DNA of 64,000 nucleotides from Candidatus Omnitrophota bacterium (lineage in GTDB: Bacteria; Omnitrophota; Gorgyraeia; Tantalellales; Tantalellaceae). This document shows positions 4,391 through 28,323 of this stretch, one piece after another. Position numbers and translations under genes: made by a program. The DNA lies in NCBI GenBank assembly GCA_043813915.1, contig JBDRKO010000026.1, positions 155 through 64,154 of the forward strand, given 5' to 3'. The first letter of the stretch is position 1, and the number at the start of each line of letters is the position of its first letter. The notes beneath the pieces are model-generated. The model did not search any database, was not told the origin of the DNA, and was given only the letters and a program-made list of their open reading frames with translations.

Positions 4391-5151
4391 TATTTTTTGT
4401 CATTCCCGTCTATAACGAAGAAGACAATATAAAAAAACTGCTCAGCAACCTGTCTTTGCACGCTGAAGAAAAGGGATGGGATCATAATATCTGTATCGCT
4501 GATGATGGATCAAGCGATGCTACCGCGGAGATCGCCGGATCCATGCGTAAGGATATCCCGCTGGAAGTAGTTTCTAATAAAGTAAACATGGGTCCCGGCG
4601 CGGCTTTTGACGCGGGATTCAGGGTAGTTCTTTCTTCGGCAAAGCCGGATGATATCATAGTCACCATGGAAGCGGATAATACCAGTGACCTTATTGTCCT
4701 TGATGAAATGATAGGCAAAATAAAGAAGGGAGCGGATATCGCTCTTGCTTCCTGTTACGCGGAGAACGGCAGGGTAGAGGGAACAACGCTTTACAGAGCT
4801 ATATGCAGCCGCGGGGCCAATCTTTTGATAAGGATGATCTCCCGGGATAAAAGGATAAGGACCGTAAGCTCGTTCTATCGGTGTTACCGGGCCGGAATAT
4901 TGTCCAGAGCGTACCAAATGTACGGCACCGATTTTATTGAGGAGAAAGGTTTTGTATGTGCGGTGGATATACTTTTAAAATTGCAGAATCTGAATGCCCG
5001 TATAAGTGAAGTACCCATGATCCTCCAGTGCGACAGGCGCATAGGAAAAAGCAAGATGAAGACCATGAGGACGATAATATCCTATTTGAAATTGATCGTC
5101 AGAGAGGTAACGAGAAAAAGTGCCCGAATTGATGGAAAAAATCAAAATTAA
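4387..5151 (+). CDS. GT2 glycosyltransferase, polyprenyl-phosphate sugar synthase-like (ArnC/DPM1-like)
   Basis: MIFFVIPVYNEEDNI...IADDGSSDAT. The ATG overlaps the stop of the upstream gene (ATGA). The ORF-track start at 4366 is rejected because it overlaps the upstream CDS. Confidence 0.65.
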   Translation: MIFFVIPVYNEEDNIKKLLSNLSLHAEEKGWDHNICIADDGSSDATAEIAGSMRKDIPLEVVSNKVNMGPGAAFDAGFRVVLSSAKPDDIIVTMEADNTSDLIVLDEMIGKIKKGADIALASCYAENGRVEGTTLYRAICSRGANLLIRMISRDKRIRTVSSFYRCYRAGILSRAYQMYGTDFIEEKGFVCAVDILLKLQNLNARISEVPMILQCDRRIGKSKMKTMRTIISYLKLIVREVTRKSARIDGKNQN

Positions 5152-13154: not shown

Positions 13155-14123
13155 CTATAGACCCGCGTTTTCGTCGTACCATTTGACGGTGGTGAATATA
13201 CCGTCGCGCAGAGCGTGTGAGGGGGCGTATCCCAGTTTTTTTAATTTGGTAATGTCGGGACAGCGTCTGGAAGTACTGCCTGCGGAAAGTTTACCGGGTA
13301 TGATCTCGATTTTTTTTCCGTAATATTCCGCTACAAGGTATATTATTTTATTTATGGTCACTTCTTCCGATGTGCCGATATTATAGATGTTCAGGTGTTC
13401 GCCTTTTTCGATGACCTTCATCAGACCGTCGATAAAGTCGTCAATGAAAACGAACGCGCGGGTCTCTTCGCCGGTTCCCTGGATAGGGAACCGTATCGGA
13501 CCTTTGTTCTTTGAAACAAGCGCTTTCATCCTTATGGCGGATTGCGGCACTACGTGTTCGGTACCCATATCCGGTCCGTAAACATTGTGGGGCCTAAAGA
13601 TGACCGCGCGGTCAAAATATTTCCGGCCATAGTTAAGTGTCATGATCTCGCTTATTATCTTACCGGCGCCGTAAGAATACCGCGGGTTCAAGGGGTCCGG
13701 TATAGAAAGAGGCACATTTTCATTTGTCGGGACAGAAGGCGGTGTCTGGTATACTTCGGAACTTGATGCCAGTATAAGTTCTTTTATGTTGTTTTCCCTG
13801 CAGGCATCGAGGACGTTCACCATGCCTTTTACCCCTACATCCAGAACGAGCTCGGGTTTGGAATAGAAAAATTCCGTTCCGTTCACGAAAGCGAGATGGC
13901 ATACACTGTCCGCGCCTATCGCGGCTTTTCTGACAGCTTCGGCATCCCTGATGTCGGCTTCGATAAACTCTATCCTGTCTATTACATCCGTAAGACGTTC
14001 CGCCGAACCTCTTGACTGGTTGTCGAGCACACGCACGCGGTATCCCGTTTCGGCCATACGGCGGACCAGCGCGGAACCTATAAACCCGGAGCCCCCGGTA
14101 ATAAGATAAAGTTTTTTGGTCAT
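13155..14123 (-). CDS. NAD-dependent epimerase/dehydratase (extended SDR; WbpP/GalE-like nucleotide-sugar epimerase candidate)
   Basis: LYLITGGSGFIGSALV Rossmann motif, YSYGAGK (YxxxK); 322 aa. Confidence 0.6.
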   Translation of the reverse strand: MTKKLYLITGGSGFIGSALVRRMAETGYRVRVLDNQSRGSAERLTDVIDRIEFIEADIRDAEAVRKAAIGADSVCHLAFVNGTEFFYSKPELVLDVGVKGMVNVLDACRENNIKELILASSSEVYQTPPSVPTNENVPLSIPDPLNPRYSYGAGKIISEIMTLNYGRKYFDRAVIFRPHNVYGPDMGTEHVVPQSAIRMKALVSKNKGPIRFPIQGTGEETRAFVFIDDFIDGLMKVIEKGEHLNIYNIGTSEEVTINKIIYLVAEYYGKKIEIIPGKLSAGSTSRRCPDITKLKKLGYAPSHALRDGIFTTVKWYDENAGL

Positions 14124-14128
14124 ATCGG

Positions 14129-15187
14129 CTATTTATTCACCTCGATCCGTTGTTCCGATCCGTTCGATCTGCGCGCCGCGTCCAGAAGCTGCTGAACGCG
14201 AAGACTGTCTTTTAAGTCCGGTCTCTGGGGAAGGCCTGTCTCGATCCAGTCCAGGAAACGGTTCACAAGGCAGGATACAGGAGCGATACGGCTGTCCGGA
14301 TCCGGCGCTGACAATGAATGCTGACAGGTTTCTTCGATCTTAGATGTCCCGCGTTTTGCCGTAAAAATTTTAAAACCGTTGATATGATCGGAAGAAGTGT
14401 TTTCCAGGACCATCGTCCCTTCGCTTCCGTAAAATTCTATCCTGTGCCCGCCGCCCGGAATAGAATGAGTAGATATAGTGACCGAAAGAGCGCATCCCGA
14501 GGCTGTTTTAGCGGAGATAATATTAAGCGTATCTGTCCGGCGCGTATCTCCGGGCGCTTTATGCATCCGGCACGAAAGTGACGTGATGGGTCCCACGAAC
14601 CATTCAAGGTAATAGAATACATGAGACGCGAATTGGTTAAGTGTTCCGCCGCCTTCGTCTGTGCGGGTTTTCCATGAGTCCAGACCTTTTTTATTGGAAT
14701 ATGTCTCAATGTCCCACGAAACGACGATATGCCGCAGCGTTCCTATATCGCCGCGTTCCAGTATGGACTTGGCTTTTTTCCATTCGAGTATCTCCGGGAA
14801 TTCAAGATCAATCATATTGGCGGTTCCGGCTTGTACGGAAGCTTCTACTATTTTGCGTCCCGAATCCATATCGATAGAAAGCGGTTTTTCACAAAAGACC
14901 GCTTTGCCCGCTAAAAATGCTTTAATAGCTATTTCACCTTGAACAGATGGGGGAACAGCGATGGATACGGCGTCAATTTCCGGTGAATTTAACATATCCT
15001 GCCAGGAGCCGAAGACCTTCGGGATACCGAGTTTTTTAGCTGTTTCCGATGCTTTTTCAGGGTCTCCTGACGCAATAGCCGCAACTTCACATCTTCCGTC
15101 CGAACGGAAAGCGGGTATATGTGTGCTTTGCGCGAACCCTCTTCCTATAATGCCGATCCTGATCTTTTTGTTATTATGATTTGTCAT
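14129..15187 (-). CDS. Gfo/Idh/MocA-family oxidoreductase
   Basis: KIRIGIIGRGFAQSTHIPAF N-terminal NAD-binding motif; 352 aa. Confidence 0.6.
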   Translation of the reverse strand: MTNHNNKKIRIGIIGRGFAQSTHIPAFRSDGRCEVAAIASGDPEKASETAKKLGIPKVFGSWQDMLNSPEIDAVSIAVPPSVQGEIAIKAFLAGKAVFCEKPLSIDMDSGRKIVEASVQAGTANMIDLEFPEILEWKKAKSILERGDIGTLRHIVVSWDIETYSNKKGLDSWKTRTDEGGGTLNQFASHVFYYLEWFVGPITSLSCRMHKAPGDTRRTDTLNIISAKTASGCALSVTISTHSIPGGGHRIEFYGSEGTMVLENTSSDHINGFKIFTAKRGTSKIEETCQHSLSAPDPDSRIAPVSCLVNRFLDWIETGLPQRPDLKDSLRVQQLLDAARRSNGSEQRIEVNK

Positions 15188-15202
15188 TCTGCGGTCAGAA
15201 CT

Positions 15203-16420
15203 TTATACTGTCGCGGTTAAAAAGTTTTGTTTCAGGAAACCCCATACGTCCAAGATCGGTTTCCCTTTAAGGTCCAGGTCTTTATATTCTTTGTGCGGCG
15301 CGCATAACACCAGAACATCGCTTTTTGATATAACTTCTTCTAAAGGCACTAGAGACGGGTCGGTCGTTACGTGAGGATCTGTCATAAGAAGCCCTTTGGC
15401 CCGGAAGGCCAGCAGTTTTTTCAGCTTATAGCTTAAAGAAGACCTGACATCATCGCTGTCCGCCTTGAATGCCATGCCGAGAAGTCCTACGGTCGTATCT
15501 TCCAGGTCGCATTTTTGTGATAATTCCTCGACCAGATAGAGGGGCAGTCCTTCGTTGACGAGCATTGCCGCGTGTCCCAGAGAGAAGTTATTGTTATTGA
15601 ATGCCGCAAGCTGCATAGTGTCCTTAAAAAGACACGGCCCAGCCGCGAACCCCGGCCCCGGAATATTTGACGCCCGGGGATAATCCTGTTTTATCCCTTC
15701 CAGTACCTTATGATAGTCTACGCCGGCCGAATTGGCCATCATGAAGAACTGGTTTGTCGCGGCGAACTGTATGTATCTGTAAGCATTGCTGAAAAGTTTG
15801 GCGAATTCCGCTTCTATAGGAGATAATCTGACCAGAGAAGGCGCTATCTTACCGAAAAGTTCCGCTGCTTTTTCTTCTGATCCAGGTGTTGTTCCGCTTA
15901 TTATCTGCGGCAGGTTTTGCAGTTCTTTTATAGCGTATCCTTGTACGATACGTTCAGGACAGAAAGCTACGGACATTTCCTTGCCGTTCTCTTTGAGATA
16001 TTTATCCAGCCAGGTTGTCATGCCGGGGAATACCGTTGAACGGAGCACTAAAAGCCCTCCTCGGAAGAGATGGGGGAGAAGAGGCGCAAGACAATCTTTT
16101 ACGGTCTGACGGACCGGATTGAGAAATTCATCTACCGGGGTCCCTATCGTTATCACTACGGTCGAGGCTTTAGCGACATCGGCCGGATCGGAGGAAAAGG
16201 AGAGTCTTTTCTCTTTCAGGGCTTTCTTTAAAAGCGGCTCGGCATCATGTTCCATAAAAGGGAGACGGCCTTCGCTTATTGTCCGCATCGAGCCCTCGTT
16301 TATGTCGTTTATCAGGACGTTCATTCCTTTGTGAGCAAAGACTATAGCCAGAGGAAGACCTACATGTCCTGCGCCGCCGACTATACATACATCATATTGT
16401 TTTTTGTTTTCCATGGTCAT
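15203..16420 (-). CDS. Nucleotide-sugar dehydrogenase, UDP-N-acetylhexosamine 6-dehydrogenase family (WbpA/WecC/TviB-like)
   Basis: VCIVGGAGHVGLPLAIVFA (GxGxVGLP motif characteristic of the UDP-ManNAc/UDP-GlcNAc dehydrogenase subgroup); 405 aa. Confidence 0.6.
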   Translation of the reverse strand: MTMENKKQYDVCIVGGAGHVGLPLAIVFAHKGMNVLINDINEGSMRTISEGRLPFMEHDAEPLLKKALKEKRLSFSSDPADVAKASTVVITIGTPVDEFLNPVRQTVKDCLAPLLPHLFRGGLLVLRSTVFPGMTTWLDKYLKENGKEMSVAFCPERIVQGYAIKELQNLPQIISGTTPGSEEKAAELFGKIAPSLVRLSPIEAEFAKLFSNAYRYIQFAATNQFFMMANSAGVDYHKVLEGIKQDYPRASNIPGPGFAAGPCLFKDTMQLAAFNNNNFSLGHAAMLVNEGLPLYLVEELSQKCDLEDTTVGLLGMAFKADSDDVRSSLSYKLKKLLAFRAKGLLMTDPHVTTDPSLVPLEEVISKSDVLVLCAPHKEYKDLDLKGKPILDVWGFLKQNFLTATV

Positions 16421-16450
16421 TACGCCTCATATTGTGTTACGGACTATAGT

Positions 16451-17005
16451 CTAATTTATCGCTAATGTTAATTTACCTTTTGATACTGCCAACATAACGA
16501 GACCCAGGTTAAGGGCATGTGTAAATTTGTCTTCACATATGTATTTAGTCAACTCATCGATGGTACAAGTGATCACTTCGATATTCTCTTCACCCGAAGG
16601 AGAGCTTTTCGACAGTATAGCATTATCGGAAAAATAACACCACATACGGTTTGCCATACGGCCCGTATCCGGCATGAGGCACCCCAAAAGTTCAGCTTTT
16701 TCGATATAGTAACCGGTCTCTTCCAGGAGCTCACGCTTAGCGGATGCTTCGGGAGCTTCACCTTTATCGACATGTCCGCTGGGCAGCTCCAGCACATAAG
16801 CTTCCACAGCGGGGCGGTACTGTCTGATCAAAATAACCCGGTTATCGGTTGTTACAGCGAGGATGGAGACATAATCATCCGGTTTAACGGCGTAGTATTG
16901 GTGTTCTTTGCCGGAAGGGTCCATCCCCTTAAGATTCTTGGAAAGGACTTTGAACCAAGGGGTTTCGAATTCAACAGTACGTTTTGTGATCTCCGGAACG
17001 GTCAT
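16451..17005 (-). CDS. NUDIX hydrolase (nucleoside-diphosphate-sugar pyrophosphatase candidate)
   Basis: Nudix box GHVDKGEAPEASAKRELLEETGY (Gx5Ex7REUxEExGU). Confidence 0.7.
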   Translation of the reverse strand: MTVPEITKRTVEFETPWFKVLSKNLKGMDPSGKEHQYYAVKPDDYVSILAVTTDNRVILIRQYRPAVEAYVLELPSGHVDKGEAPEASAKRELLEETGYYIEKAELLGCLMPDTGRMANRMWCYFSDNAILSKSSPSGEENIEVITCTIDELTKYICEDKFTHALNLGLVMLAVSKGKLTLAIN

Positions 17006-17171: not shown

Positions 17172-17200
17172 TTGACAATACGGGATTTTCAAAATAATAT
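17172..17200 (+). promoter_or_regulatory. Candidate sigma70-type promoter for the GT-C gene at 17216
   Basis: TTGACA (17172-17177), 17-nt spacer, TAATAT (17195-17200); lies in the 210-bp divergent intergenic region. Confidence 0.3.
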
Positions 17201-17215: not shown

Positions 17216-18712
17216 ATGTTAAAATACCTAAGTTATAATATACATAACCTAAGCGATAAGGGGAAGCTTTTTTTGGTCCTGGCGGTATCTTTCCTGGCCA
17301 GGATCATCAATATTACCATGCCGATCCTTGAAGGGACGGCAGCACGTCAGATACAAACTGCCGGTATCGCGAAGTTCTTTTACAATAACAGCTTCGATAT
17401 ATTGTTCCCCAGGCTGGATTTCCTGACCGGAAAAGAAAGCTGTCTTATCCTTGAACTTCCGCTGTACAACGCTATTCTGGCGTCTTTATACCGTATGACA
17501 GGCGGGGTGCATGAGTGGATGGGGCGCCTGGTGAGCATACTTTTTTTTCTCGGCGCGGGATTTTTTGTCTATTTGATAATAAAAAGGCTCTATGGCGCGG
17601 GGATAGCTCTTACGGGGCTCATCGTTTACAATCTGTCGCCTCTGGGTATAATATTCAGCCGCGCGATCATGCCGGACTCGGCAATGCTTTTTTTCTCAAC
17701 GGGAGCCGTTTATTTTCTTTTTTCTTTCGTTCAGGGCGCGAAACCGCAGAATTATTGGATATCGGCTGTTTTTACGATGACCGCTTTACTGGTCAAACCG
17801 CATTCCTTCTATATCCTGTTGCCGCTTTTATACCTGGTTTTCTACAGACAGAGAATGAGGTGTTTTCTTGATGTTAAGAATTATATTTTCGCCTTGATCG
17901 TATTGACACCGGCCTTTTTCTGGTATTCGCACGGCTCTTCGGTGCATAGTTCTTTATCAGCGGGCAAGATGATGAATTTCAGTATTTCTAACTGGTTCGA
18001 CCCGAAGTTATTCTTAAGTCCGGGTTTCTACCGGGATATATTTGAGATCTTTTCCGGGATACTATTGACGCCTGTCGGGCTTGTTCTTTTTGTTCTGGGC
18101 ATATCGGTAAAGATGCGCGACAGGATCGAGTTCGTGCTGGCAGCATGGCTGGCGGGAGTGACGCTTTACCTGACTTCGTTTAACGCGCTTTTATGGGAAC
18201 CGTATTATTATCTTTCGGTCCTGCCCATAGCGTCGATCTTCATATCCCGTGTTTTTCTTCCGCATCGGGGAGAAGGCCTTAAAAAACCGTATTTTTCGGG
18301 TAAGACCGCGAAAATACTGATCTTTACCGTTACAGCGTTATTTATAGGGAAATATGCGTTACAGGCGTATATGGTGCCGTCCGGGTACAGATATATCCCT
18401 GAAGCCGCGGAAGCGGTCAGGCGTTTAACCGGGCCCGATGATCTTGTGGTCGTATGCGAGAGGCAGGGGTCGGGAGCGCTGCTGTACTATTTTGACAGAA
18501 AAGGCTGGGTGATGCCTGTTCCTCAGGAAGAAGCCGCTTTCAAGGCCGGGATAGTGAAGGAACTGGAAAAGTTCAGATCTAAAGGGGCCGGATATTTTAT
18601 TGCCGCTGACGGAGGCAGGTTCTCGGCGGATTTTCTCGGGCGTAATTTACCGGAAAGATACGAGTTGATCGAACATCGGAAAAATAAATACGTGATCTAT
18701 AAATTAAGTTAA
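17216..18712 (+). CDS. GT-C membrane glycosyltransferase, ArnT/GT83-like (undecaprenyl-phosphate sugar dependent)
   Basis: About 11 N-terminal TM helices. First loops carry an ArnT-like pattern (ARQIQTAGIAKFF...ELPLYNAILASLYRMTGGVHEWMGRLVSILFF). C-terminal soluble domain. Confidence 0.55.
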   Translation: MLKYLSYNIHNLSDKGKLFLVLAVSFLARIINITMPILEGTAARQIQTAGIAKFFYNNSFDILFPRLDFLTGKESCLILELPLYNAILASLYRMTGGVHEWMGRLVSILFFLGAGFFVYLIIKRLYGAGIALTGLIVYNLSPLGIIFSRAIMPDSAMLFFSTGAVYFLFSFVQGAKPQNYWISAVFTMTALLVKPHSFYILLPLLYLVFYRQRMRCFLDVKNYIFALIVLTPAFFWYSHGSSVHSSLSAGKMMNFSISNWFDPKLFLSPGFYRDIFEIFSGILLTPVGLVLFVLGISVKMRDRIEFVLAAWLAGVTLYLTSFNALLWEPYYYLSVLPIASIFISRVFLPHRGEGLKKPYFSGKTAKILIFTVTALFIGKYALQAYMVPSGYRYIPEAAEAVRRLTGPDDLVVVCERQGSGALLYYFDRKGWVMPVPQEEAAFKAGIVKELEKFRSKGAGYFIAADGGRFSADFLGRNLPERYELIEHRKNKYVIYKLS

Positions 18713-18713
18713 T

Positions 18714-18842
18714 ATGAAAATAGCATTGATCAATCCTCCGCCGATCCCCAGGAGTATTTCAGAAAACTTGGATATACACGGAGAGCGCATGCTTTTTTTA
18801 AGCAGTAAAACTTATTTTCGAAGGTCCAAAAAAAACAGGTGA
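18714..18842 (+). other. 42-codon ORF (MKIALINPPPIPRSISENLDIHGERMLFLSSKTYFRRSKKNR); possible gene remnant or leader peptide
   Basis: ATG 2 nt after the upstream stop; the N-terminus resembles the start of B12-rSAM proteins (MKIxLINPP...), but the ORF terminates early and has no SD. Confidence 0.15.
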
Positions 18843-18850
18843 GGTCATAG

Positions 18851-21031
18851 ATGAAAAAGATCCTTGTTACGGGCGGCGCCGGATATCTCGGGTCGGTTCT
18901 CTGTCATAAACTTATCGATAAGGGATATTCCATAAGATGTTTTGACCGGCTTTATTTCGGAGATGGGTCCGTCAAGGACCTTTCTTCAACGGGACGTTTT
19001 GAGCTCATTAAAGGAAATATAGTCAACCTTAAGGATTTCCCTGAACTTCTTGACGACATAGATAGTGTGATACATCTGGCGGGCTTGGCTAACGATCCTA
19101 CCGCGGAACTTGATACGGAGCTGACCAGGATAACCAATCAGTATGCGTCGGTAGAACTGGCAAAAGAAGCAAAAAAGAAAGGGATATCCAAATTTATATT
19201 CGCGTCAAGCTGCAGCGTTTACGGAAAAGGCCTTTCGGAAGAGATAACGGAAGAGTCCCCGCTTAATCCCGTCTCGGTGTATGCCGAGTCCAAAGTGCTG
19301 GCAGAACAGGAGATAGCGCTTCTTAAGGACGAAAAGTTCCATCCGGTGTTTCTCCGGCAGGCGACACTTTTCGGCAGATCATACAGGATGCGTTTTGACC
19401 TTGCGATAAACCTCATGGTGGTGCATGCTCTTACCAAAAAGAAGATATTCGTATGGGGCGGCGGCGAACAGTGGCGGCCATTTCTGCACGTCGACGACGC
19501 GGCGGAGGCTTTTTTGGCCTGCCTTGAAGCCGAGACGAAAACGGTTTCAGGAAAAGTTTTCAATGTCGGAGATTCAAAAGTAAATTATAAGATAATCGAC
19601 CTGGCCAATTTTGTTAAGGACAGGATAAAAGGGACGGAGCTGGAAATAGTGCCGGACACCCCGGATAAACGCAGTTACAAGGTGCGTTTTGATAAGATAG
19701 GAAAGAGCCTTGGATGGTATCCGAAGATAAAGGTGGAAGACGGTATAAAAGAGCTCAGCGACTATCTGCTGGAAGGTAAGATAAAAGATTTTGACAGTCC
19801 CGAGTTCTATAATATCAAGACGATAATGAGTTTTATCGAAAAACCGGCGATAGAGGGAGGCGACCCGGTCAGGACCGAATTCCTTCCGTTCTCTCTTCCC
19901 CTGATAGGTAAAGAAGAAGAGGAAGAGGTTCTTGATACATTGAGGTCCGGATGGCTTACCACGGGTCCTAAAACAAAGAAACTGGAAGATGAGTTCAGCG
20001 GGTACCTGGGGGCAAAACATTCCATATGCGTCAGTTCCTGTACGGCCGCTCTTCATCTCGCGCTGGTCGCTTTGGGTATAAAAAAAGGAGACGAGGTCAT
20101 AACCTCGCCCATTACCTGGCCCGCTACCGCGAACGTTATTGTCCATACAGGCGCGGTCCCTGTTTTTGCGGACGTTGAACGCGATACGTTAAATATCGAT
20201 CCCGCCAAAATAGAAAAGAAAATAACAAAAAAGACCAAGGCGATAATCCCGGTACATATGGCAGGCCAGCCCTGTGACATGGATAAGATAAGCAGGATAG
20301 CTAAAAAACACGGTCTGTTCGTGATAGAGGACGCGGCTCACGCGATAGGAGCCGAATATAACGGCAGTAAGATAGGGGTGGTAAGCGACATGACCTGTTT
20401 CAGTTTCTATCCGATAAAGAACATGACCACCATAGAAGGAGGGCTCATAACCACGAACAATGACGGCTGGGCGGAAAATATGCGCGTTAACAGTCTGCAC
20501 GGCATAGATAAGGATGCGTGGAAGAGGTACACAAATACGGAGTTCAAACATCATGAGGTTGTCTATCCGGGGTTCAAATACAATATGAGCGATATTCAGG
20601 CATCCATGGGGCTTGCTCAGCTCAGGAAACTGGACGGATTTATCGGCAGAAGAAAAGAGATCACAAGCATATATAACGACTCGTTCAGGTCTTTTGAAGA
20701 GATAATACTGCCGGTATCAAAAGGGAACATCAAACACGCTCATCATCTTTATGTGATCATTCTCGATACTGACAGACTTAAAGTAGGCAGAGATAAGATC
20801 ATACAAACACTGAACAAAGAGAATATCGGCACGGGGCTCCATTTCAGGTCTTTACATGTGCAGGAGTATTATAAAAAGACCTTTGCGTATAAGCCGGAAG
20901 ACTTGCCCGAAGCGGCGTTCCTGAGCGACAGGATAATATCTCTGCCGCTTTACCCGAAGATGGATCAATATGATGTTGATTCGGTAATAAGGGCCGTCAG
21001 AAAAGCGATCATTTATTATAAAGCGGCGTAA
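18851..21031 (+). CDS. Bifunctional fusion: N-terminal extended SDR epimerase/dehydratase (~330 aa) + C-terminal DegT-family PLP aminotransferase (~390 aa)
   Basis: N-terminus ILVTGGAGYLGSVL...YAESK...RPFLHVDD. C-terminus EEEEVLDTLRSGWLTTGPK...CVSSCTAALHLAL...PxHMAG...CFSFYPxKN (DegT motifs). The SDR half is paralogous to 39037-40449. Confidence 0.65.
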   Translation: MKKILVTGGAGYLGSVLCHKLIDKGYSIRCFDRLYFGDGSVKDLSSTGRFELIKGNIVNLKDFPELLDDIDSVIHLAGLANDPTAELDTELTRITNQYASVELAKEAKKKGISKFIFASSCSVYGKGLSEEITEESPLNPVSVYAESKVLAEQEIALLKDEKFHPVFLRQATLFGRSYRMRFDLAINLMVVHALTKKKIFVWGGGEQWRPFLHVDDAAEAFLACLEAETKTVSGKVFNVGDSKVNYKIIDLANFVKDRIKGTELEIVPDTPDKRSYKVRFDKIGKSLGWYPKIKVEDGIKELSDYLLEGKIKDFDSPEFYNIKTIMSFIEKPAIEGGDPVRTEFLPFSLPLIGKEEEEEVLDTLRSGWLTTGPKTKKLEDEFSGYLGAKHSICVSSCTAALHLALVALGIKKGDEVITSPITWPATANVIVHTGAVPVFADVERDTLNIDPAKIEKKITKKTKAIIPVHMAGQPCDMDKISRIAKKHGLFVIEDAAHAIGAEYNGSKIGVVSDMTCFSFYPIKNMTTIEGGLITTNNDGWAENMRVNSLHGIDKDAWKRYTNTEFKHHEVVYPGFKYNMSDIQASMGLAQLRKLDGFIGRRKEITSIYNDSFRSFEEIILPVSKGNIKHAHHLYVIILDTDRLKVGRDKIIQTLNKENIGTGLHFRSLHVQEYYKKTFAYKPEDLPEAAFLSDRIISLPLYPKMDQYDVDSVIRAVRKAIIYYKAA

Positions 21032-21130
21032 CGGATACCGGCATGTAGCTGGCTGTAATAACAGATGACGGCAGTATCGACGGGATTGTCTCGCGGGTAC
21101 CGCAAAGTGAATTAGCTTCGGAAGGAAGTC

Positions 21131-22849
21131 ATGAGAAATATCGAACGCACTAGGACCATTCTGTTTTTCATACTGATAGCGGCTTTTGTCGTCCGGTTAA
21201 CCGGCGTAAATTTCGGCCTGCCGTTCCTTTATCATAACGATGAGCCTATAATCGTCAATTACGCTCTTGCTTACGGCGCGGGCGACCTGAACCCTCATTT
21301 TTTCAAGATACCGCCTTTTTTGTCATATATACTTTTCTTTCTTTACGGTGTGTTCTATCTCCTGGGCAGAGTAACGGGTCTTTTCGGCGGAGTTAATGAT
21401 TTCGGTTATTTTTTTCTGAACGACGTCAGCGTTTTTTATCTTATAGGAAGGATAGCCTCGGGCGTTGTTTTGGGCACGGCATCGGTCTATCTTATGTATG
21501 TTCTAGGTAAACGCGTATTTTCGAGGCCGGCGGGTCTTATAGCCGCGCTGTTTCTGGCATTCAATTTTCTGCATGTCCGGGACTCGCATTACATATACCT
21601 CGATGTGCCGCTTGTATTTTTCACGACCCTTTATTTTATAGTTCTCGGCACGCTTTACAAAAAAGACCGTCCGCGCGATTACATGATATCGGGATTTGTT
21701 ATGGCCCTGGCTGTGTCGATGAAATATAACGGCATATTAATGGCCGTTCCGACCGTTCTTATTATGGCGAGAGCCCTGATAAGGGCCCGCAAAGAGATAC
21801 CGGTCCTGCTTAAAAAATACGGGTTATATATTTCTTTTTTCGTTCTGGGACTCTTCCTTACAAATCCTTTCATGTTCCTGGACTGGAAATTCTTTTTTGC
21901 CAGGACCGCCAACATGCCTTTTACGGGCTCCGATCCCTGGTATCATATAAGGATATCGCTTTTGGGAAGTTGCGGGATATATATGTGTATAGCGGCGGTT
22001 ATAGGCATGATAACGGCTTTCATAAAGAAAAAGGATATTTTTACAGTATCCCTTGTATGTTTTACGGCAGCATATTATTTTATTCTCACAAGGGCAAGTC
22101 AGCCTGCGGAAAGATATATTTTTCCCATATTACCGATAGTCCTTTTGTTTTCAGCGTATTTAGTAACGGTGCTTTCGGACTTGACCAGCGACAGGCGGAT
22201 TAAAACAACGGTCTTAGTTTTTTGCTGTCTCTTGTTCATGGTACCGTCCGGTCTAAGAATATATCATAGCGAGAGGCTCTTCCTGGCGGAGGATACCCGG
22301 ACACAGTGTTATGACTGGATAACGAAGAACATCGCCTATGGCAGCGCGATAGCTCTTGACGCTACCGGGCCTGTATTTCCTCGGCTTAAGCAGACAAAAG
22401 AACTTGTGGAAGAAAGTTTCAGTAATTTCAACAACCCCAAGTTCGCGACCCCCGAAGGGTCCATGAGCTATAAGGTCAAACTTCTGCTTTCGAACCCCGA
22501 TTACCCGGAAGATACATATCGGATACTTTACCTGCGCAAGAAGATATCGAGAAAGAACCGTTTTCTCGGTCTTTACCCCGAATCGCTCCTTGATATGGAT
22601 GAATTGAGAAGGCAGGGAATAGAGTACGTGGTCGCGCACAATATTCTGCTGAGTTCTTACTATAAGGATTTTCTGGAACAGCTGGAGGAAGGCTCTGTCC
22701 TGGTAAAAGAGTTCTCTCCATATAAACCCGGACGCGGGAGGATAAAACCGCTGGAAGAATCTTCTCTGGCGGCCGCTCCTTTTTCTTTCAGGGAACTTTC
22801 GGACCGTGAAAGGCCGGGGCCTGTTCTCAGGATATATCGGTTGAGGTGA
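21131..22849 (+). CDS. GT-C membrane glycosyltransferase, PMT_2/ArnT-like
   Basis: FFILIAAFVVRLTGVNFGLPFLYHNDEP and multiple TM helices; 572 aa with a C-terminal soluble region. Confidence 0.5.
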   Translation: MRNIERTRTILFFILIAAFVVRLTGVNFGLPFLYHNDEPIIVNYALAYGAGDLNPHFFKIPPFLSYILFFLYGVFYLLGRVTGLFGGVNDFGYFFLNDVSVFYLIGRIASGVVLGTASVYLMYVLGKRVFSRPAGLIAALFLAFNFLHVRDSHYIYLDVPLVFFTTLYFIVLGTLYKKDRPRDYMISGFVMALAVSMKYNGILMAVPTVLIMARALIRARKEIPVLLKKYGLYISFFVLGLFLTNPFMFLDWKFFFARTANMPFTGSDPWYHIRISLLGSCGIYMCIAAVIGMITAFIKKKDIFTVSLVCFTAAYYFILTRASQPAERYIFPILPIVLLFSAYLVTVLSDLTSDRRIKTTVLVFCCLLFMVPSGLRIYHSERLFLAEDTRTQCYDWITKNIAYGSAIALDATGPVFPRLKQTKELVEESFSNFNNPKFATPEGSMSYKVKLLLSNPDYPEDTYRILYLRKKISRKNRFLGLYPESLLDMDELRRQGIEYVVAHNILLSSYYKDFLEQLEEGSVLVKEFSPYKPGRGRIKPLEESSLAAAPFSFRELSDRERPGPVLRIYRLR

Positions 22850-22853
22850 AAAA

Positions 22854-23606
22854 ATGGACCATTCGGTCGTAGTTCCGGTGTATAACGAGCAAGAGTCGAT
22901 AAGAGCTTTATACGATCGGCTGAAACATGTTATGGAAAAGATGGCTTCCGATTATGAAATCGTATTCGTTGACGATGGTTCGGGAGACGCTTCTTTTAAC
23001 GTATTGAAAAAAATAGCTTCCGGTGACGGTAAAGTGAAAATTCTGAGTTTTTCCCGTAATTTCGGACAGCATCCGGCCGTAATAGCCGGGTTTGAAGCGG
23101 CTTCGGGAGAGATGATACTGACGCTTGACGCTGATCTTCAGAACCCGCCGGAAGAAATACCGCGTCTTATCGAGGCAATGCGCGGCGGGCATGATATGGT
23201 AAGCGGGATCCGCTCGGCCAGGCAGGATACCGCTTTTCGCAGGTCCGGTTCTTTTTTCACTGTTATGTTCCTGAATATACTTAGCGGGAGTAACGTCAGG
23301 GACTATGGGACCATGCTGCGCGCTTTCCGGAAAGATTTCGCTAAGACCCTGGCGGAGCGTTACCGAAAAGAAAGGCTGTATATACCGGTACTTGTCAATA
23401 AACTTACGAAAAATATTCTTGAAGTGGAAGCCGGGCATGAAACCCGTTTCTCCGGAAGCTCCAAGTACGGTATGCTTAAGCTCATAAAGACTTTCATCTC
23501 GATATTCATCAGGTGGCATCATAAATTATCGCTTTTTCTGCAGTCCGTTCACATGATGAAAAAAGACGGGATACTTTATGAAATCGAGGAGAAGATAAAT
23601 CTTTGA
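22854..23606 (+). CDS. GT2 UndP-sugar synthase, GtrB/ArnC-like
   Basis: VVPVYNEQESI, FVDDGSGDAS, FSRNFGQHPA (characteristic GtrB/ArnC/DPM motif). Confidence 0.7.
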   Translation: MDHSVVVPVYNEQESIRALYDRLKHVMEKMASDYEIVFVDDGSGDASFNVLKKIASGDGKVKILSFSRNFGQHPAVIAGFEAASGEMILTLDADLQNPPEEIPRLIEAMRGGHDMVSGIRSARQDTAFRRSGSFFTVMFLNILSGSNVRDYGTMLRAFRKDFAKTLAERYRKERLYIPVLVNKLTKNILEVEAGHETRFSGSSKYGMLKLIKTFISIFIRWHHKLSLFLQSVHMMKKDGILYEIEEKINL

Positions 23607-24349
23607 AGATATCCATACGAAGCAATAAATGGGATAGTTCCTTTTTCGGGAAAAAGATCGGCAGAATGACCTGCGCGGGCCCTGCGAAGCCGTCTCGTAT
23701 TTTTTTCGCGGAACTGCTGGAGACAGCCATAAGAAGGGCCGCTTTGTTGAAATTTAACTACCTTATCTTCACCGTATCGGAAGGTCACGTTTTTTCTGTA
23801 AACACTTTAAAAGAAAAAGGGTTTACCCTGGGAGGATCGTCTGTTGACAGTAAGTTACGTCTCAAAAAAACGCCGGAAAGAACAAGAGGTCCCAGGTACG
23901 ATATCGCCGAAGCCGGGAAAAGGGACATGCGTGAAGCCGAAAAAATATCCGGATATTCTTTTAGAAAAAGCAGATTGTATAATATCGAGTTCGCATCCGG
24001 GAAAAAAGTCGATCGTTATCATGCGTTATGGGTAAGGAACCTGCATGAGAACGAGAATTCGGTTGTTCTCCTCGCGAAAGACAAAAATAAGATATATGGA
24101 TTTCTGGCCGGCACGATCGATATCAGGAACAGAACATCGAGGATAATACTCATGGCGAGTGCTCGGGGCAAACGGAGCAGAGGAGCGGGAAGCGACCTTA
24201 TGCGCGGTTTTCTTGAATGGAGCAGAGAGAGGGGCGTTAACACCGTGTACGTTAAAACCCAGAAAGAGAACGAGGGGGCTCTGAGATTCTATAAAAAACA
24301 CGGATTCAAGATCTGTTCACGGGAAGAACACTATCATATACATCTATGA
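23603..24349 (+). CDS. GNAT-family N-acetyltransferase (WecD-like amino-sugar N-acetyltransferase candidate)
   Basis: C-terminal GNAT motifs (KIYGFLAG..., RGKRSRGAGSDLM, GALRFYKKHGFK) with an N-terminal non-GNAT extension; 248 aa. Confidence 0.5.
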   Translation: MKISIRSNKWDSSFFGKKIGRMTCAGPAKPSRIFFAELLETAIRRAALLKFNYLIFTVSEGHVFSVNTLKEKGFTLGGSSVDSKLRLKKTPERTRGPRYDIAEAGKRDMREAEKISGYSFRKSRLYNIEFASGKKVDRYHALWVRNLHENENSVVLLAKDKNKIYGFLAGTIDIRNRTSRIILMASARGKRSRGAGSDLMRGFLEWSRERGVNTVYVKTQKENEGALRFYKKHGFKICSREEHYHIHL

Positions 24350-26016
24350 AAAAGATCATACTGAGCATACTCATAATGCTGTTCGTCTTCTTATGCCTGG
24401 GGACAATGAACAGCACTTCGCCTATCTGTGACGAAGTAGCGCACCATCTGGCGAACGGTTATTCTTATGTGAAGACCGGTGATTTCCGCATGAACCCTTC
24501 CTCGCCGGCCCTTTCAAGAAGCTTAATAGGCTTACCTATGCTTTTCATGGGCCTCAAACTGCCCACAGATCATGTTTCCTGGAAGGAGAACGATAGTCCC
24601 ACTTTCGGCAGACTGTTCCTGTATGAATATAACGACGATCCTGAAAAAATAGTTTTTTGGGGCCGTGTCCCCGTGATGATCCAATCGGTATTTCTTTGTT
24701 TGTTGATATACGCGTGGGGCAAACGTATATACGGCACGAACGCGGCGCTTTTTTCCGTCTTTTTATATCTATTCTCACCGGCAGTTCTCGGCAACTCATG
24801 TCTCGCTATGACGGATATTTCCGGAAGTCTGTTCATATTTCTATCGGTTTATCAGTTCTGGAGATATTTGAAGAAAAAGACGATTCCGACCATGATCCTG
24901 GCGGGGGTTTGTCTTGGTCTGGCCCAATCCGCTAAACATACGGCTGTAGTACTGGTTCCTATGTTCGTTATCCTAGGGATCATAGATGCCGCGTCGTCAA
25001 AAAACCTGAGGGAAAATTTACTTCAATTTACAAAAGACATGATCTTTATCTGCCTGGCGGCTTTTTTCGCGTTATGGGCTACATACTTTTTTGAGTTTAA
25101 ACCGCTCCTTTTGAACGCGCCTGATGTCGGGGAGAAAGTACAATACATAAAAAAAGCACTGGCTTTTATTCCGTTATTGAACAAAGAACATATTGCCGGC
25201 TGGTGCATCTATTTCGCGAAGAATGTTCCTATACCGCTGAGCTCTTTCCTCGTATCCCTTCTGGGAGTATTACACCAAGGTACGATAGGGCAGGGTGTTT
25301 TCTTTTTCGGAGAGAATATTACAGGTGGATCAAGGATCTACTATGTTGTGGATTATCTTATCAAAGCACCGCTCCCAATTTTGATCTTTATAGCAACCGC
25401 TATTTCGCTTTCGATAGCGAAGAAGAAAACAAAGACAGACCTTATTACTATCAGCTGTATGGTCCTTCCTATAATAGTGATCTTTGGCTTTTCATCAGCA
25501 TCCAAAGTCCAGGGAGGCATACGGTACTTGTTGCCGATGTATCCGTTCCTCTTTATGTGGGTCGGAGATATCATTAACGTTAAATTCACGGCAAATAAGA
25601 AGATGTTCTATAGGACTATTCTGGGGGTTCTATGCATATGGCAGTTATGGATAGTAATGGCCGCGTATCCTGATTATTTATGTTATTTCAACGAATCTGT
25701 CGGTGGTCTTGACGGTACGGCTAACGGTATAACGCACGATAGCGATTGGGGGCAGGATCTTAAAGCTCTCGGCAGGTATGTTAAAGAGAATGATGTAGAG
25801 GAGACAGTTCTTACGTATTTTGGGACAGCCGATCCTGATCTTTACGGTATTAAATACCGGCTCATGCAGCCTGATGAGAAGGAAACGCCGCGCAGAGAAG
25901 TATACGCGGTAAGCGTGCGGTACATAACAGCCGCGGAATGGACGAAAAAATATGAACCCACGGCGAAAGCCGGATATTCGATATTTATTTACGATTTCAG
26001 GGAACGGTCAGAATGA
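24346..26016 (+). CDS. GT-C membrane glycosyltransferase, PMT_2/GT39/ArnT-like
   Basis: Loop-1 DE motif (SPICDEVAHHLANGYSY), then ~11 TM helices and a C-terminal soluble domain; 556 aa. Confidence 0.55.
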   Translation: MKKIILSILIMLFVFLCLGTMNSTSPICDEVAHHLANGYSYVKTGDFRMNPSSPALSRSLIGLPMLFMGLKLPTDHVSWKENDSPTFGRLFLYEYNDDPEKIVFWGRVPVMIQSVFLCLLIYAWGKRIYGTNAALFSVFLYLFSPAVLGNSCLAMTDISGSLFIFLSVYQFWRYLKKKTIPTMILAGVCLGLAQSAKHTAVVLVPMFVILGIIDAASSKNLRENLLQFTKDMIFICLAAFFALWATYFFEFKPLLLNAPDVGEKVQYIKKALAFIPLLNKEHIAGWCIYFAKNVPIPLSSFLVSLLGVLHQGTIGQGVFFFGENITGGSRIYYVVDYLIKAPLPILIFIATAISLSIAKKKTKTDLITISCMVLPIIVIFGFSSASKVQGGIRYLLPMYPFLFMWVGDIINVKFTANKKMFYRTILGVLCIWQLWIVMAAYPDYLCYFNESVGGLDGTANGITHDSDWGQDLKALGRYVKENDVEETVLTYFGTADPDLYGIKYRLMQPDEKETPRREVYAVSVRYITAAEWTKKYEPTAKAGYSIFIYDFRERSE

Positions 26017-28220
26017 GGGATATTTTTAAAAAACACGGATTATTCATATCGATATTTTCTTTTTCGGTAGTCATTTTTCTGGCAGGTATCGTTTTTCTGA
26101 GAAAAGGTTTCTTGACCGGAGACAATATCAGCCAGGCATACCCCTGGCTCAAGGTTTATTCGGAATTCTTAAAAGACGGTAGTTTCCCGTATTGGGTAAA
26201 AGATATACACTGCGGGTTTCCGCTTATGGGAGAAGGGCAGGTAGGAGGGTTCTATCCGCTGAATATCCTGTTCTTTTATGTTCTTCCGTTCCGTCCGGCG
26301 TATAACTTTATAATAATTTTCCATTACATGCTTCTGGGGACTTTTACCTACCTCTTTACGCGGAAGCTGGGCGCGGATGAATGGGGCGGAACCCTTGCGG
26401 CTATTATACTCTGTTTCGGTGAAACTTTAGCTAATCTCGGATATCACGTGGCCATGCTGCGCGCGCTTACGTGGTTCCCGCTGGTCCTCCTTTTGTTCGA
26501 GCATTATCTGGAAAAAGGGCGCCTCAGGTATATGGTCATAGCCGCGTTGGCGGCTGGAACGCAGCTTCTTTCCGGTTCGGTGCAGATGGCTTCTTACAGC
26601 ATGATATGTTATTTTTTCTATCTATCATACGCCGCACGTATCAGAAAAAGACCCCTTTTAAAGACGTACGTTTCTTTTGCGGGTTTCGCCGCAATAGCCG
26701 CTATCATGTTCCTTCCTCAGCTTCTGTTGACACTTAAGGTCTTGAAATATTCGGGCAGGCTCGCCTCGCTTGATTTTTCGTTATGGGGCTCTCTTAATCC
26801 GTTATCTTTCCTGACCACGGTCTTTCCCTGGCCGGCTAGGGCACACGGGCAGATAGCGACCGAGGGGATGTTCCTCGGAGTGCTGTCTATACTGTTCCTG
26901 ATCGTCTCGGTCCGCCTGCTGAAAGAAAAAAAAGAAATAAGGCCGCTTGTCCTTATAGCGGCCGTGTCGGTCTTTGCGGCTCTCGGCTGGTTCAATCCCT
27001 TTTATGTGCTGGCGCTTAAAGTCTCAAAATTCTATTTTTTCAGAGGAGGCGCCAGATTTATCTTTTTCGGTCTGTTCAGCGCTTCTGTCCTGGCCGGCAT
27101 AGGTTTTTCGCGTTTCTTTTCCCAAAGACATTCTGATCGTTTAAAACAGATAAAGTCTTTTTATCGATTTATCCTTTTTTGCGCTGTTATGATAGGAGGT
27201 TCTGTTTTAACTCTTATTTACGCTAAGCCGTGGATAATAAAGACCGGACATAAATTCGTCGATATGTTCATAGCGGGTATGCCATACCACCGGCGCAGTC
27301 TTGAAGAATATTATTTGAGAGTTGAAAATGTTTATCAGGGACTCTTGAGCAGTAAGGCTCTGACAAGTTCTCATATGCTGCTAGCCGCATTATTCGTGGT
27401 AAGCGCGGTGATCTATTGCGCTATAGCAAAAAAATATCTTACAGATAACAATTCTAAAAAATACAAACTCTATGCAAAAAGCGCGGCGATCATGTTGATC
27501 CTCGCCAACCTGTACGCGTATAAATATTTTCCGGGAGGAATAAATGATAACTTAGCGGGCTATAATATCTCCGAGAAGCCGGCTTCTGTCATTTACGGAA
27601 AAATAAAGGAAGATAAGGATGAATTTCGCGTTGCTCCTTATGGTATACGTTCAGGGAAACTGCCTTTCTGGATAATGCCCAATATGAACATGATCTACGG
27701 GGTCGACTCGATAGGTGTTTATTCTCCGCTTTCCGGGGAGGGTTACAAAAAAGCTCTTGAAAAAGTTCAGATGGTGGATGATTCGGTAGGGCTTTTGGAT
27801 CCAAAAGAGGGGGCACTTGATGCGGATACTTTATCTCTTCTCGGGCAGATGAATGTCAAATATCTTATGGCACCCGAGGCCGTAAATGATCCCATGTTGG
27901 CAGAAGTCTCCCGCGAAAACGGAGTATACCTTTACCGGTTGAAGGATTTTCTCGGTAAAGGGTTTTTTAGCGCCGACCTGAATGCTTCGTCAGTATCCGG
28001 TGAGGGGATAAAAGTGGTCGAATATTCATCCGGATACGCCGAATTAGAGGTAGATCTTGCTTCCGGTGGTTATATTGTATTCTCCGAATGGTTCTTCCCG
28101 GGTTGGACCGCCCGGATAGACGGGAAGAACGTCAAAATAGAGCCTTTCAAGAGTGTGCTTCAAGCCGTGCGTTGCTCCAAAGGAAAGCACAGGATAGTTT
28201 TCACATACCGACCATTTTAA
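26013..28220 (+). CDS. Large polytopic membrane protein, YfhO-like (GT-C-type lipid-linked sugar transferase candidate)
   Basis: 735 aa, about 13 TM helices, N-terminal QAYPWLKVYSEF...GFPLMGEGQVGGFYPLN region and a large C-terminal extracytoplasmic domain. Confidence 0.4.
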   Translation: MRDIFKKHGLFISIFSFSVVIFLAGIVFLRKGFLTGDNISQAYPWLKVYSEFLKDGSFPYWVKDIHCGFPLMGEGQVGGFYPLNILFFYVLPFRPAYNFIIIFHYMLLGTFTYLFTRKLGADEWGGTLAAIILCFGETLANLGYHVAMLRALTWFPLVLLLFEHYLEKGRLRYMVIAALAAGTQLLSGSVQMASYSMICYFFYLSYAARIRKRPLLKTYVSFAGFAAIAAIMFLPQLLLTLKVLKYSGRLASLDFSLWGSLNPLSFLTTVFPWPARAHGQIATEGMFLGVLSILFLIVSVRLLKEKKEIRPLVLIAAVSVFAALGWFNPFYVLALKVSKFYFFRGGARFIFFGLFSASVLAGIGFSRFFSQRHSDRLKQIKSFYRFILFCAVMIGGSVLTLIYAKPWIIKTGHKFVDMFIAGMPYHRRSLEEYYLRVENVYQGLLSSKALTSSHMLLAALFVVSAVIYCAIAKKYLTDNNSKKYKLYAKSAAIMLILANLYAYKYFPGGINDNLAGYNISEKPASVIYGKIKEDKDEFRVAPYGIRSGKLPFWIMPNMNMIYGVDSIGVYSPLSGEGYKKALEKVQMVDDSVGLLDPKEGALDADTLSLLGQMNVKYLMAPEAVNDPMLAEVSRENGVYLYRLKDFLGKGFFSADLNASSVSGEGIKVVEYSSGYAELEVDLASGGYIVFSEWFFPGWTARIDGKNVKIEPFKSVLQAVRCSKGKHRIVFTYRPF

Positions 28221-28305: not shown

Positions 28306-28323
28306 AACAAAAAAGGGGGCCAA

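Follow-up and report, generated by a model that had tools for sequence, protein, structure and literature searches.

What do five polytopic membrane proteins and six small family 2 glycosyltransferases (GT2s), all encoded within 64 kb of one contig of Candidatus Omnitrophota, do for the cell that carries them? The whole 64-kb stretch, hereafter the window, was the scope of our analysis, and all its large open reading frames (ORFs) were scanned with Pfam; every ORF on which an earlier inspection of the same sequence (the original prediction) had relied does exist where it had been placed. The answer that we find quite probable is that several pairs, each made of a GT2 and of a membrane glycosyltransferase of the GT-C class, glycosylate extracytoplasmic acceptors with sugars carried by polyprenyl phosphate, and that the core operon at 18851-28220 delivers a 4-acetamido-4-deoxy sugar. 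The observations behind it are direct ones: family and fold assignments, a missing transmembrane (TM) hairpin in five of the GT2s, synteny with other genomes and natural fusion proteins. The features discussed below are listed in Table 1.

Table 1. Coordinates of the glycosylation genes and neighbouring features in the 64-kb window (aa, amino acids; nt, nucleotides; SDR, short-chain dehydrogenase/reductase)
Feature	Position	Strand	Remarks
GT2 without TM segment, 241 aa	496..1221	+	PF00535; PpgS / dolichyl-phosphate hexose transferase type
GT2 without TM segment, 236 aa	1561..2271	+	PF00535; PpgS / dolichyl-phosphate hexose transferase type
GT2 without TM segment, 254 aa, partner of adjacent GT87-like GT-C	4387..5151	+	PF00535
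GT87-like GT-C-fold membrane protein, 431-435 aa	5120..6427	+	GT87 24.1 bits versus cutoff 25
NodB-type polysaccharide deacetylase, ArnD superfamily	6417..7310	+	Polysacc_deac_1 63 bits; no specific NCBIfam equivalog
GT2 without TM segment, 233 aa	12371..13072	+	PF00535
Divergent sugar-nucleotide operon	13155..17005	-	SDR (LegB/RmlB-like), GFO/MocA oxidoreductase, NDP-sugar 6-dehydrogenase (405 aa), NUDIX hydrolase
Promoter-like site (TTGACA, 17 nt spacer, TAATAT)	17172..17200	+	Consensus match only; in 211-nt divergent intergenic region before 17216
GT-C glycosyltransferase, PMT_2 family, 498 aa	17216..18712	+	PMT_2 56.3 bits; at least 6 hydrophobic segments
Bifunctional SDR + aminotransferase, 726 aa	18851..21031	+	Epimerase-type SDR residues 4-240; DegT residues 352-717
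GT-C glycosyltransferase 'A', 572 aa	21131..22849	+	PMT_2 48.8 bits, PMT 42.6 bits; ~11 TM + C-terminal soluble domain
ArnC-like GT2, 250 aa, candidate polyprenyl-phosphate glycosyl synthase	22854..23606	+	GT-A domain, juxtamembrane-type amphipathic helices, no TM hairpin
WecD/RffC-like GNAT N-acetyltransferase, 248 aa	23603..24349	+	Acetyltransf_1 55 bits; WecD model PRK10975 80 bits, full length
GT-C glycosyltransferase 'B', 556 aa	24346..26016	+	PMT_2 44.3 bits, PMT 36.0 bits
YfhO-family GT-C-fold membrane protein, 735 aa	26013..28220	+	YfhO 39.8 bits; C-terminal beta-rich extracytoplasmic domain
Wzx-type (Polysacc_synt) flippase candidate	52281..53765	+	Only polytopic membrane protein in window besides the five GT-Cs
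GT2 with two C-terminal TM helices, 316 aa	60326..61276	+	PF00535; sole GT2 here of GtrB/ArnC/AglJ architecture

All five membrane proteins were confirmed as GT-C enzymes, either by Pfam (gathering thresholds of 26.1 bits for PMT_2, PF13231, 28.5 bits for YfhO, PF09586, and 25 bits for GT87, PF09594) or by fold, and a Kyte-Doolittle scan found 6 to 11 hydrophobic segments in each of them. The three at 17216, 21131 and 24346, described in the original prediction as ArnT/PMT_2-like, do pass the PMT_2 threshold, but as judged from sequence profiles the GT-Cs appear to be closer relatives of PMT than of ArnT: when GT-C 'A', GT-C 'B' and their PMT-like families were combined in one profile (alignment A3), it found Pmt1 (E 2.5e-7) and Pmt4 (E 4e-6) in the PDB, with the D-E motif aligned. 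GT-C 'B' also gave weak matches to Agl23 and LA_3751. In each of the five proteins or families an acidic residue, which would face the extracytoplasmic side, is kept just after the first TM segment. It is Glu39 in the 17216 protein, within a motif P-x-L-E-x4-R-Q-x-Q-T-A that is retained, Glu39 included, in the ortholog at 3602-5119 of contig L005 (28-31% identity). In GT-Cs 'A' and 'B', which are ~20% identical, it is Asp37, set in an H-N-D-E motif in the former and a C-D-E motif in the latter and invariant in all 10 sequences of A3. The corresponding residues are a nearly invariant Gly36-Asp37 in the family of the 26013 protein (30-sequence alignment A1), and invariant His33 and Asp35 in that of the 5120 protein (alignment A2).

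For the four large membrane proteins phmmer found no match among PDB sequences; profile and fold searches were the informative ones. The YfhO match of the 26013 protein is restricted to residues 664-734 (aligned to profile positions 754-825); remote full-length homologs carry PF09586 and the identical protein is named 'YfhO family' by NCBI. Its AlphaFold2 (AF2) model (pLDDT 90.6, pTM 0.91) had STT3, ArnT, PglB, AftD and EmbB as best Foldseek matches in the PDB, with a probability of 1.0; transporters did not exceed 0.15. The 5120 protein, proposed earlier as a fifth GT-C-like enzyme, is under the GT87 cutoff, but some members of its family carry PF09594 and NCBI names it 'GT87 family'. The high-probability matches of its AF2 model (pLDDT 89.4) are all GT-C, namely PIGU, ALG6 (TMq 0.61), ArnT, PIG-M and ALG3/9/12, the fold being nearest to ALG6 and PIG-M. 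Both models show many long helices, and for both the best PDB matches were exclusively GT-C or GT-C-like (probability 0.9-1.0). On the basis of these folds, Wzy, ligase or transporter identities were rejected for the two proteins; with the other three above the PMT_2 threshold, the outcome that would have undermined the original prediction, i.e. a set of transporters or Wzy polymerases, was not what we found.

The second component of the proposed systems is the GT2. All six match PF00535, but the GtrB architecture which they had been credited with is present only in the one at 60326, the five others (496, 1561, 4387, 12371 and 22854) being devoid of TM segments and ArnC/PpgS/DPM1-like. Those at 496, 1561, 4387 and 12371 are mutually only 25-35% identical. 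They match the PpgS model (226 positions) and the dolichyl-phosphate (DolP)-hexose transferase model (213 positions) from end to end, with scores below cutoffs, and the best NCBIfam matches of the GT2s other than 22854 are to PgfS, AglJ, PpgS, DolP-hexose transferase and ArnC. The GT2s end in an amphipathic helix of the juxtamembrane type. The TM-less ones look like PpgS/DPM1-like peripheral enzymes, which probably act at the membrane through these helices and probably dock on the neighbouring GT-C. The likely start of one of them is 4387, as originally given, and not 4366, where the longest ORF begins; it is called as a 254-aa protein in another assembly.

In the GT2 of the core operon (22854), the GT-A catalytic domain is homologous to those of ArnC, GtrB and DPMS and has a DXD motif; the protein contains the announced motif LSFSRNFGQHPAV. 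Its residues 4-215 align to residues 11-222 of the ArnC structures 9bhc/8vxh with an E value of 1e-48, against 5e-25 for GtrB and 6e-23 for DPMS; the DADLQNPPEEIP motif is conserved. The NCBIfam ArnC model gives 198.1 bits over positions 9-219 of 316. In ArnC itself the GT-A domain is followed by two juxtamembrane helices, two TM helices and a C-terminal hairpin; the TM helices and this beta-hairpin build the ArnC tetramer (PMC12690121). Relative to ArnC, the 22854 GT2 has lost TM1, TM2 and the C-terminal hairpin. Its orthologs in contigs L001, L003 and L005 are equally short and have no TM segment, and the hairpin is retained in its closest homologs from Planctomycetota (329 aa) and Hydrogenedentota (316 aa). 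That the short GT2s could be truncated pseudogenes or assembly artefacts was considered and rejected: the length is the same in orthologs from independent contigs, and the start of the following gene lies 4 nt ahead of the stop codon. When 1.84 billion representative proteins were searched with this GT2, 804 were found at E<=1e-30; the best 150 of them are mostly 300-345 aa long, some being short and some fused to other domains. Two (P0232 and P0271) are ArnC-like GT2s fused to ArnA-type formyltransferase domains, which links this GT2 subfamily to N-acylated amino-sugar donors. Fused forms are seen in several close homologs (P0232, P0271, P0333, P0249, P0283, P0366 and P0219), the additions being an ArnA-type formyltransferase, a nucleotidyltransferase, N-terminal tetratricopeptide repeat (TPR) arrays or a tandem GT2.

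Do GT2s and GT-Cs work together? In the relatives (L001, L003 and L005) almost every GT-C has a 235-257-aa GT2 as neighbour, and the 1561 GT2 is 54-63% identical to GT2s that adjoin PMT-type GT-Cs in L001 and L003. In the window the 4387 GT2 overlaps the start of the 5120 GT-C, and on two independent metagenomic contigs (proteins P0214 and P0215) a GT2 and a GT87-like GT-C form one polypeptide of 673-674 aa; the N-terminal GT2 half of P0214 is 49% identical to the 4387 GT2. Of all the evidence, this Rosetta-stone fusion argues most strongly that the TM-less GT2s would work physically with the adjoining GT-C. Together, these cases show that in putative lipid-sugar synthases of the ArnC type the membrane anchor can be lost, and that such enzymes can be paired with GT-Cs or fused to them. 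The original suggestion that a lipid-phosphate sugar is made inside and transferred outside is supported by the ArnC relationship, the recurrent GT2/GT-C adjacency and the GT2-GT-C fusions. At the locus of one such fusion (L088, fusion gene at 368-2389), the next genes code for a GFO/MocA oxidoreductase and a hexapeptide acyltransferase, a pair also present at 9449-11080 of the window, and there is also a gene for a DUF2079 membrane protein after the fusion gene.

The 4387/5120 pair is directly followed by the NodB-type deacetylase gene at 6417, which is the NodB gene nearest to the core operon. In the mycobacterial PpgS route, polyprenyl-P-GalNAc is deacetylated before transfer, and the trio at 4387-7310 (GT2, GT-C and deacetylase) may be viewed as an analogue of ArnC/ArnD and of that route. 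As for flipping of the lipid-linked sugar, no small multi-TM protein of the GtrA or ArnE/F kind was detected by hydropathy among the ORFs of at least 50 aa on both strands of the window, in agreement with the original prediction, and the small unassigned ORFs that were tested match no Pfam family.

The order of genes in the core is SDR-aminotransferase fusion, GT-C 'A', GT2, GNAT, GT-C 'B' and YfhO-like protein, so that the GT2, the GNAT and the fusion are indeed interleaved with the GT-Cs, as had been described; Pfam confirmed the GNAT and the SDR plus DegT composition. From 21131 to 28220 the genes overlap or stand 4 nt apart, and the GT-Cs and their neighbours read as a translationally coupled, co-transcribed unit. 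The N-terminal extended SDR of the fusion carries the motifs TGGAGYLGS, SSCSVYG and YAESK. For its aminotransferase part the best NCBIfam models are ArnB (423.6 bits) and PseC (383 bits), both below equivalog cutoffs; since both describe 4-aminotransferases, this part reads as a DegT/ArnB-like sugar 4-aminotransferase, with the invariant Lys523 as its presumed pyridoxal phosphate-binding lysine. The GNAT resembles WecD, a 4-amino-sugar N-acetyltransferase, and would probably acetylate the 4-amino group of the nucleotide sugar; the acyl group is accordingly predicted to be acetyl and not formyl. ArnC takes only the N-formylated donor (PMC12690121), and such a need for an N-acylated donor would account for the acyltransferase in the operon.

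The core thus reads as an Arn-like module for a 4-acylamido sugar. In each of the proposed systems a small cytoplasmic GT2 would load the sugar from its nucleotide onto polyprenyl phosphate, and a GT-C enzyme would move it from the flipped lipid to an extracytoplasmic acceptor. In the core operon, the SDR domain would oxidise C4 of the nucleotide sugar and the fused ArnB-like aminotransferase would convert the product to a 4-amino-4-deoxy sugar. The WecD-like GNAT would then N-acetylate it, standing in for the formylation by ArnA, and the ArnC-like GT2 would put the 4-acetamido sugar on polyprenyl phosphate. After flipping by a protein encoded outside the window, up to three co-transcribed GT-Cs (21131, 24346 and the YfhO-like 26013) would attach it to one or more acceptors. 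A C4-aminated, N-acylated and lipid-loaded sugar is expected because three independent assignments converge on it, i.e. the ArnB/PseC-like aminotransferase, the WecD-like GNAT and the ArnC-like GT2; every catalytic step of this scheme, together with the sugar, the nucleotide, the flipping step and the acceptor, is what we infer from sequence.

Is this module peculiar to one contig? Its gene order is kept in three others, with 36-57% amino-acid identity, which indicates that the core genes are real and under selection. Two of these contigs are from Omnitrophota (L001 and L003) and one is labelled 'Patescibacteria group' (L005); all have the fusion, a GT-C of 566-570 aa, a GT2 of 249-257 aa, the GNAT, in identical position, and a GT-C of 553-556 aa, and the YfhO-like gene follows this set in L001 and L003. 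The fusion protein of the L005 contig (GCA_040756075.1) is 65% identical and the synteny of this contig with the Omnitrophota loci is full, which points to a taxonomic mislabel, mis-binning or recent transfer. Beside the L005 module are genes for a sulfatase/APS-kinase fusion and an ATP sulfurylase, a hint of sulfated glycans. A minimal version (fusion, PMT_2 protein and 329-aa GT2) was found in a metagenome-assembled genome (MAG) of Planctomycetota. In a Woesearchaeota MAG (L006, 7282-12181) the fusion is accompanied by a formyltransferase and by a PMT_2 GT-C of divergent sequence, immediately beside an archaeal ribosomal-protein operon; this appears to be an Arn-like module in a DPANN archaeon.

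Among GTDB genomes, true fusions are also present in Nitrospiraceae, in Hydrogenedentota and in Myxococcales, where a GNAT gene immediately precedes the fusion, and Acidobacteria have unfused sets of SDR, aminotransferase and WecD-like GNAT. The scan of genome contigs found true fusions in 5 of 80 new loci; because it used aminotransferase-domain patterns, it mostly returned stand-alone aminotransferases. Co-occurrence with a GT-C was seen in Omnitrophota, Planctomycetota and Woesearchaeota; in the new loci, single-sequence phmmer does not pick up distant GT-Cs. The 548-563-aa 'SDR' ORFs of Acidobacteria were discarded as new fusions: Pfam finds only the SDR domain in them, and the extra N-terminal residues are probably due to over-extended ORFs. 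In a homolog search with the fusion, 6343 of 8000 scored candidates were at E<=1e-10, of which many may match one domain; full-length members exist. The family is already named 'bifunctional SDR family oxidoreductase/aminotransferase' by NCBI, and a literature search for a characterised member turned up none.

With the Arn system (PmrHFIJKLM; ArnA, ArnB, ArnC, ArnD, ArnE/F and ArnT) the module shares its pathway logic and three enzyme families: an ArnB-like 4-aminotransferase acts after an SDR that oxidises C4, N-acylation precedes lipid loading by an ArnC-like GT2, and the GT-C is of the PMT_2 family. It differs in that the SDR is fused to the aminotransferase, whereas in ArnA it is joined to the formyltransferase, in that a WecD-like GNAT takes the place of this formyltransferase, in the absence from the SDR of the decarboxylase Glu, in the shortened GT2 and in having three GT-Cs, which resemble PMT more than ArnT, instead of one ArnT. 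Three-component systems are known for O-antigen (GtrA/GtrB/GtrC) and for teichoic acids (CsbB (GtlA)/GtcA/YfhO (GtlB)) (PMC5836110, PMC8035078). There too a GT2 makes a C55-P-sugar and a GT-C, which may be a YfhO-family member, transfers it outside, but here no GtrA/GtcA flippase gene accompanies them within 64 kb, most GT2s have no TM anchor and, as to CsbB/GtcA/YfhO, the host is a member of the phylum Omnitrophota, not a Gram-positive bacterium. Mycobacterial PpgS (Rv3631)/Rv3779 and Ppm1/Pmt, as well as eukaryotic DPM1, resemble the present systems as TM-less polyprenyl-phosphate glycosyl synthases which depend on a GT-C and on a membrane partner encoded apart from them; the scores obtained here are far below the equivalog cutoffs, and the GtrA-like partner Rv3632 has no counterpart in the window.

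Several points weigh against the Arn-like module for a 4-acetamido sugar as we propose it. The 22854 GT2 is far below the NCBIfam ArnC equivalog cutoff (198 versus 529 bits), the TM-scores of the GT-C fold matches are modest (0.34-0.61), and there is no significant sequence similarity of the GT-Cs to ArnT (E 0.078 for the A3 profile versus ArnT 5ezm). The core operon has neither a deacylase (ArnD) nor a flippase (GtrA, ArnE/F), and that one donor would be common to three GT-Cs is an assumption of the scheme. The sugar, moreover, is probably not 4-amino-4-deoxy-L-arabinose (L-Ara4N). When the SDR domain is aligned to human UXS, S-C-S (in SSCSVYG) replaces the T-S-E of STSEVYG, the Glu of which is a conserved catalytic residue of the ArnA/UXS decarboxylases; the 60 PDB hits listed for this domain do not include ArnA, and the PRK11908 model gives 56 bits for a cutoff of 294. 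These facts also bear on the idea that the locus is a true Arn pathway, in which a GT-C adds L-Ara4N or a close analogue to lipid A phosphate for resistance to cationic peptides. ArnB and ArnC are the best NCBIfam matches of the aminotransferase and of the GT2, an NDP-sugar 6-dehydrogenase is encoded divergently upstream, and ArnT also belongs to Pfam PMT_2. But all scores are under equivalog cutoffs, acetyl would replace formyl, and the Woesearchaeota module belongs to an archaeon, without lipid A. We regard a true Arn pathway as very unlikely. Lipid A, which had been listed with lipopolysaccharide (LPS) among the acceptors, is not a required one, given this archaeal relative.

What, then, could the acceptor be? 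The island, with its Wzx-type and nonulosonic-acid genes (see below), speaks for an acceptor that is LPS-like or a surface polysaccharide. Alternatively, the PMT-like GT-Cs might be protein O-glycosyltransferases acting on proteins that are secreted or exposed at the surface (S-layer, pili, giant surface proteins), as actinobacterial Pmt does with Ppm1; this is unlikely in our view. It would agree with Pmt1 and Pmt4 being the best solved relatives of the GT-C profile, with the matches of 21131 and 24346 to the PMT model of Pfam and with the spread of the system over an archaeon and phyla whose envelopes vary; the similarity, however, is weak (29-33 bits) and confined to an N-terminal membrane region common to PMT_2/GT83/GT39, the Pfam scan revealed no MIR domain, and the Wzx-type and nonulosonic-acid setting fits polysaccharide modification equally. 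The GT2s could also be ordinary cytoplasmic enzymes that extend the chain of a repeat unit on undecaprenyl pyrophosphate, with polymerases, ligases or transporters as the polytopic proteins. PF00535 is broad, none of the GT2s reaches an equivalog cutoff and a Wzx-type protein is encoded in the window; yet it is consistently polyprenyl-phosphate glycosyl synthases that the GT2s match best in NCBIfam and the PDB (ArnC, GtrB, DPMS, PpgS, PgfS, AglJ and DolP-hexose transferase), and their terminal amphipathic helix, the GT-C and not Wzy, WaaL or transporter folds of the membrane proteins, and the natural GT2-GT-C fusions all go against chain extension, which we hold to be most improbable.

To return to the Arn-like module, its SDR domain has as closest solved relative 6vo6 (E 6.5e-38); 6vo6 and 6vo8 are, we presume, Cj1427, the GDP-heptose C4-dehydrogenase of Campylobacter jejuni. 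The two share the motif R-x-A-T-x-F-G-x-S-x-R-M-R-x-D-L-x-x-N, invariant in the fusion family, and differ in that Cj1427 is a stand-alone enzyme of heptose epimerisation whereas the SDR here is fused to a transaminase. If the SDR does belong in this clade, the fusion could be a self-contained, redox-neutral C4-aminating enzyme, a speculative proposal to which we give little credence. Cj1427 holds NADH tightly and re-oxidises it with alpha-ketoglutarate (PMC10680097). In the fusion, the alpha-ketoglutarate released by the Glu-dependent transaminase would recycle the cofactor of the SDR. The net reaction would be NDP-sugar + Glu -> NDP-4-amino-sugar + 2-hydroxyglutarate, without 6-deoxygenation or decarboxylation, and the acetylated product, an unusual 4-acetamido-4-deoxy-hexose or -hexuronate, would be loaded onto the lipid by the anchor-less ArnC relative docked on its GT-C partner. 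Were this true, a system without any characterised member would be widespread in Omnitrophota, Planctomycetota, Hydrogenedentota and DPANN archaea.

How new is all this? The general mechanism, a GT2 lipid-phosphate sugar synthase serving a GT-C transferase, is already well established, the gene families are already named by NCBI, and as a cell-surface glycan system the locus, though coherent, is of a fairly ordinary kind; current understanding is not overturned. The new elements are the uncharacterised SDR-aminotransferase fusion, acetyl in place of formyl, the anchor-less ArnC relatives paired with or fused to GT-Cs, the three GT-Cs in a single operon and the lack of a flippase gene nearby. 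Omnitrophota are abundant, mostly uncultivated and very small bacteria, the surface chemistry of which is, to our knowledge, essentially unknown, and the locus offers a concrete, testable pathway for one of their surface modifications. It also draws attention to a bifunctional SDR and 4-aminotransferase family spread over several candidate phyla and archaea, and the anchor-less ArnC-like synthases are relevant to donor-lipid handover and flipping.

Pfam annotation of the large ORFs showed a surface-glycan island extending over all 64 kb, with many SDR epimerases/dehydratases, DegT aminotransferases, GFO/MocA oxidoreductases and acyltransferases, ~10 methyltransferases and a single Wzx-type protein in addition to the six GT2s and five polytopic membrane proteins. 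We propose that the window belongs to a very large island of cell-surface glycan genes, and that it carries several separate two-step glycosylation systems. GC content is even (0.41-0.49), GC skew is positive, no tRNA gene was found in the window, and nearly every gene is on the + strand. The sole exception is the block of four genes at 13155-17005, where the GC skew falls to ~0 and whose NUDIX hydrolase is NudE-like; this operon may supply a precursor. L001 and L003 carry a + strand PMT and GT2 pair in its place, which suggests an inversion or insertion.

At the other end of the core operon, a perfect sigma-70 consensus (TTGACA, 16 nt spacer, TATAAT) at 28278-28305 overlaps the longest-ORF start of the gene at 28288; the true start of the latter may be Met13, at ~28324, and the consensus may mark the end of the GT-C operon. 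The genes that follow (28288-32363) code for an M29-aminopeptidase-like protein (a sub-threshold match), an AMP-binding adenylating enzyme, a glyoxalase-fold protein and a methyltransferase; acylation or aminoacylation of a sugar is a possible role for them.

A nonulosonic-acid cluster lies at 39037-51573 and 56631-57317, its main part being upstream of the Wzx-type gene. Its members include a CBS-SDR, an FdtA-like isomerase, a DegT aminotransferase, a CMP-transferase, a GNAT, an ATP-grasp enzyme, a HAD hydrolase, NeuB and a second cytidylyltransferase, as well as a 618-aa protein that resembles a 2-epimerase or capsule-synthesis enzyme. Directly 3' of the Wzx-type gene, there is a 438-aa protein (53767-55083) that belongs to no Pfam family and has at most one predicted TM segment.

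Four B12-binding radical-SAM enzymes are encoded amid the glycan genes (7943-9361, 32624-34231, 55058-56446 and 58251-60329), and such enzymes adjoin GT2/GT-C pairs in relatives (L001 8549-9988 and 19939-21348; L005 2143-3540); they may methylate sugar carbons or lipid-linked sugars. Also within the island, at 34221-36373, are genes for an aminoglycoside 3-N-acetyltransferase-like protein (Antibiotic_NAT) and then for a DUF4910/DUF2172/HTH_47 protein.

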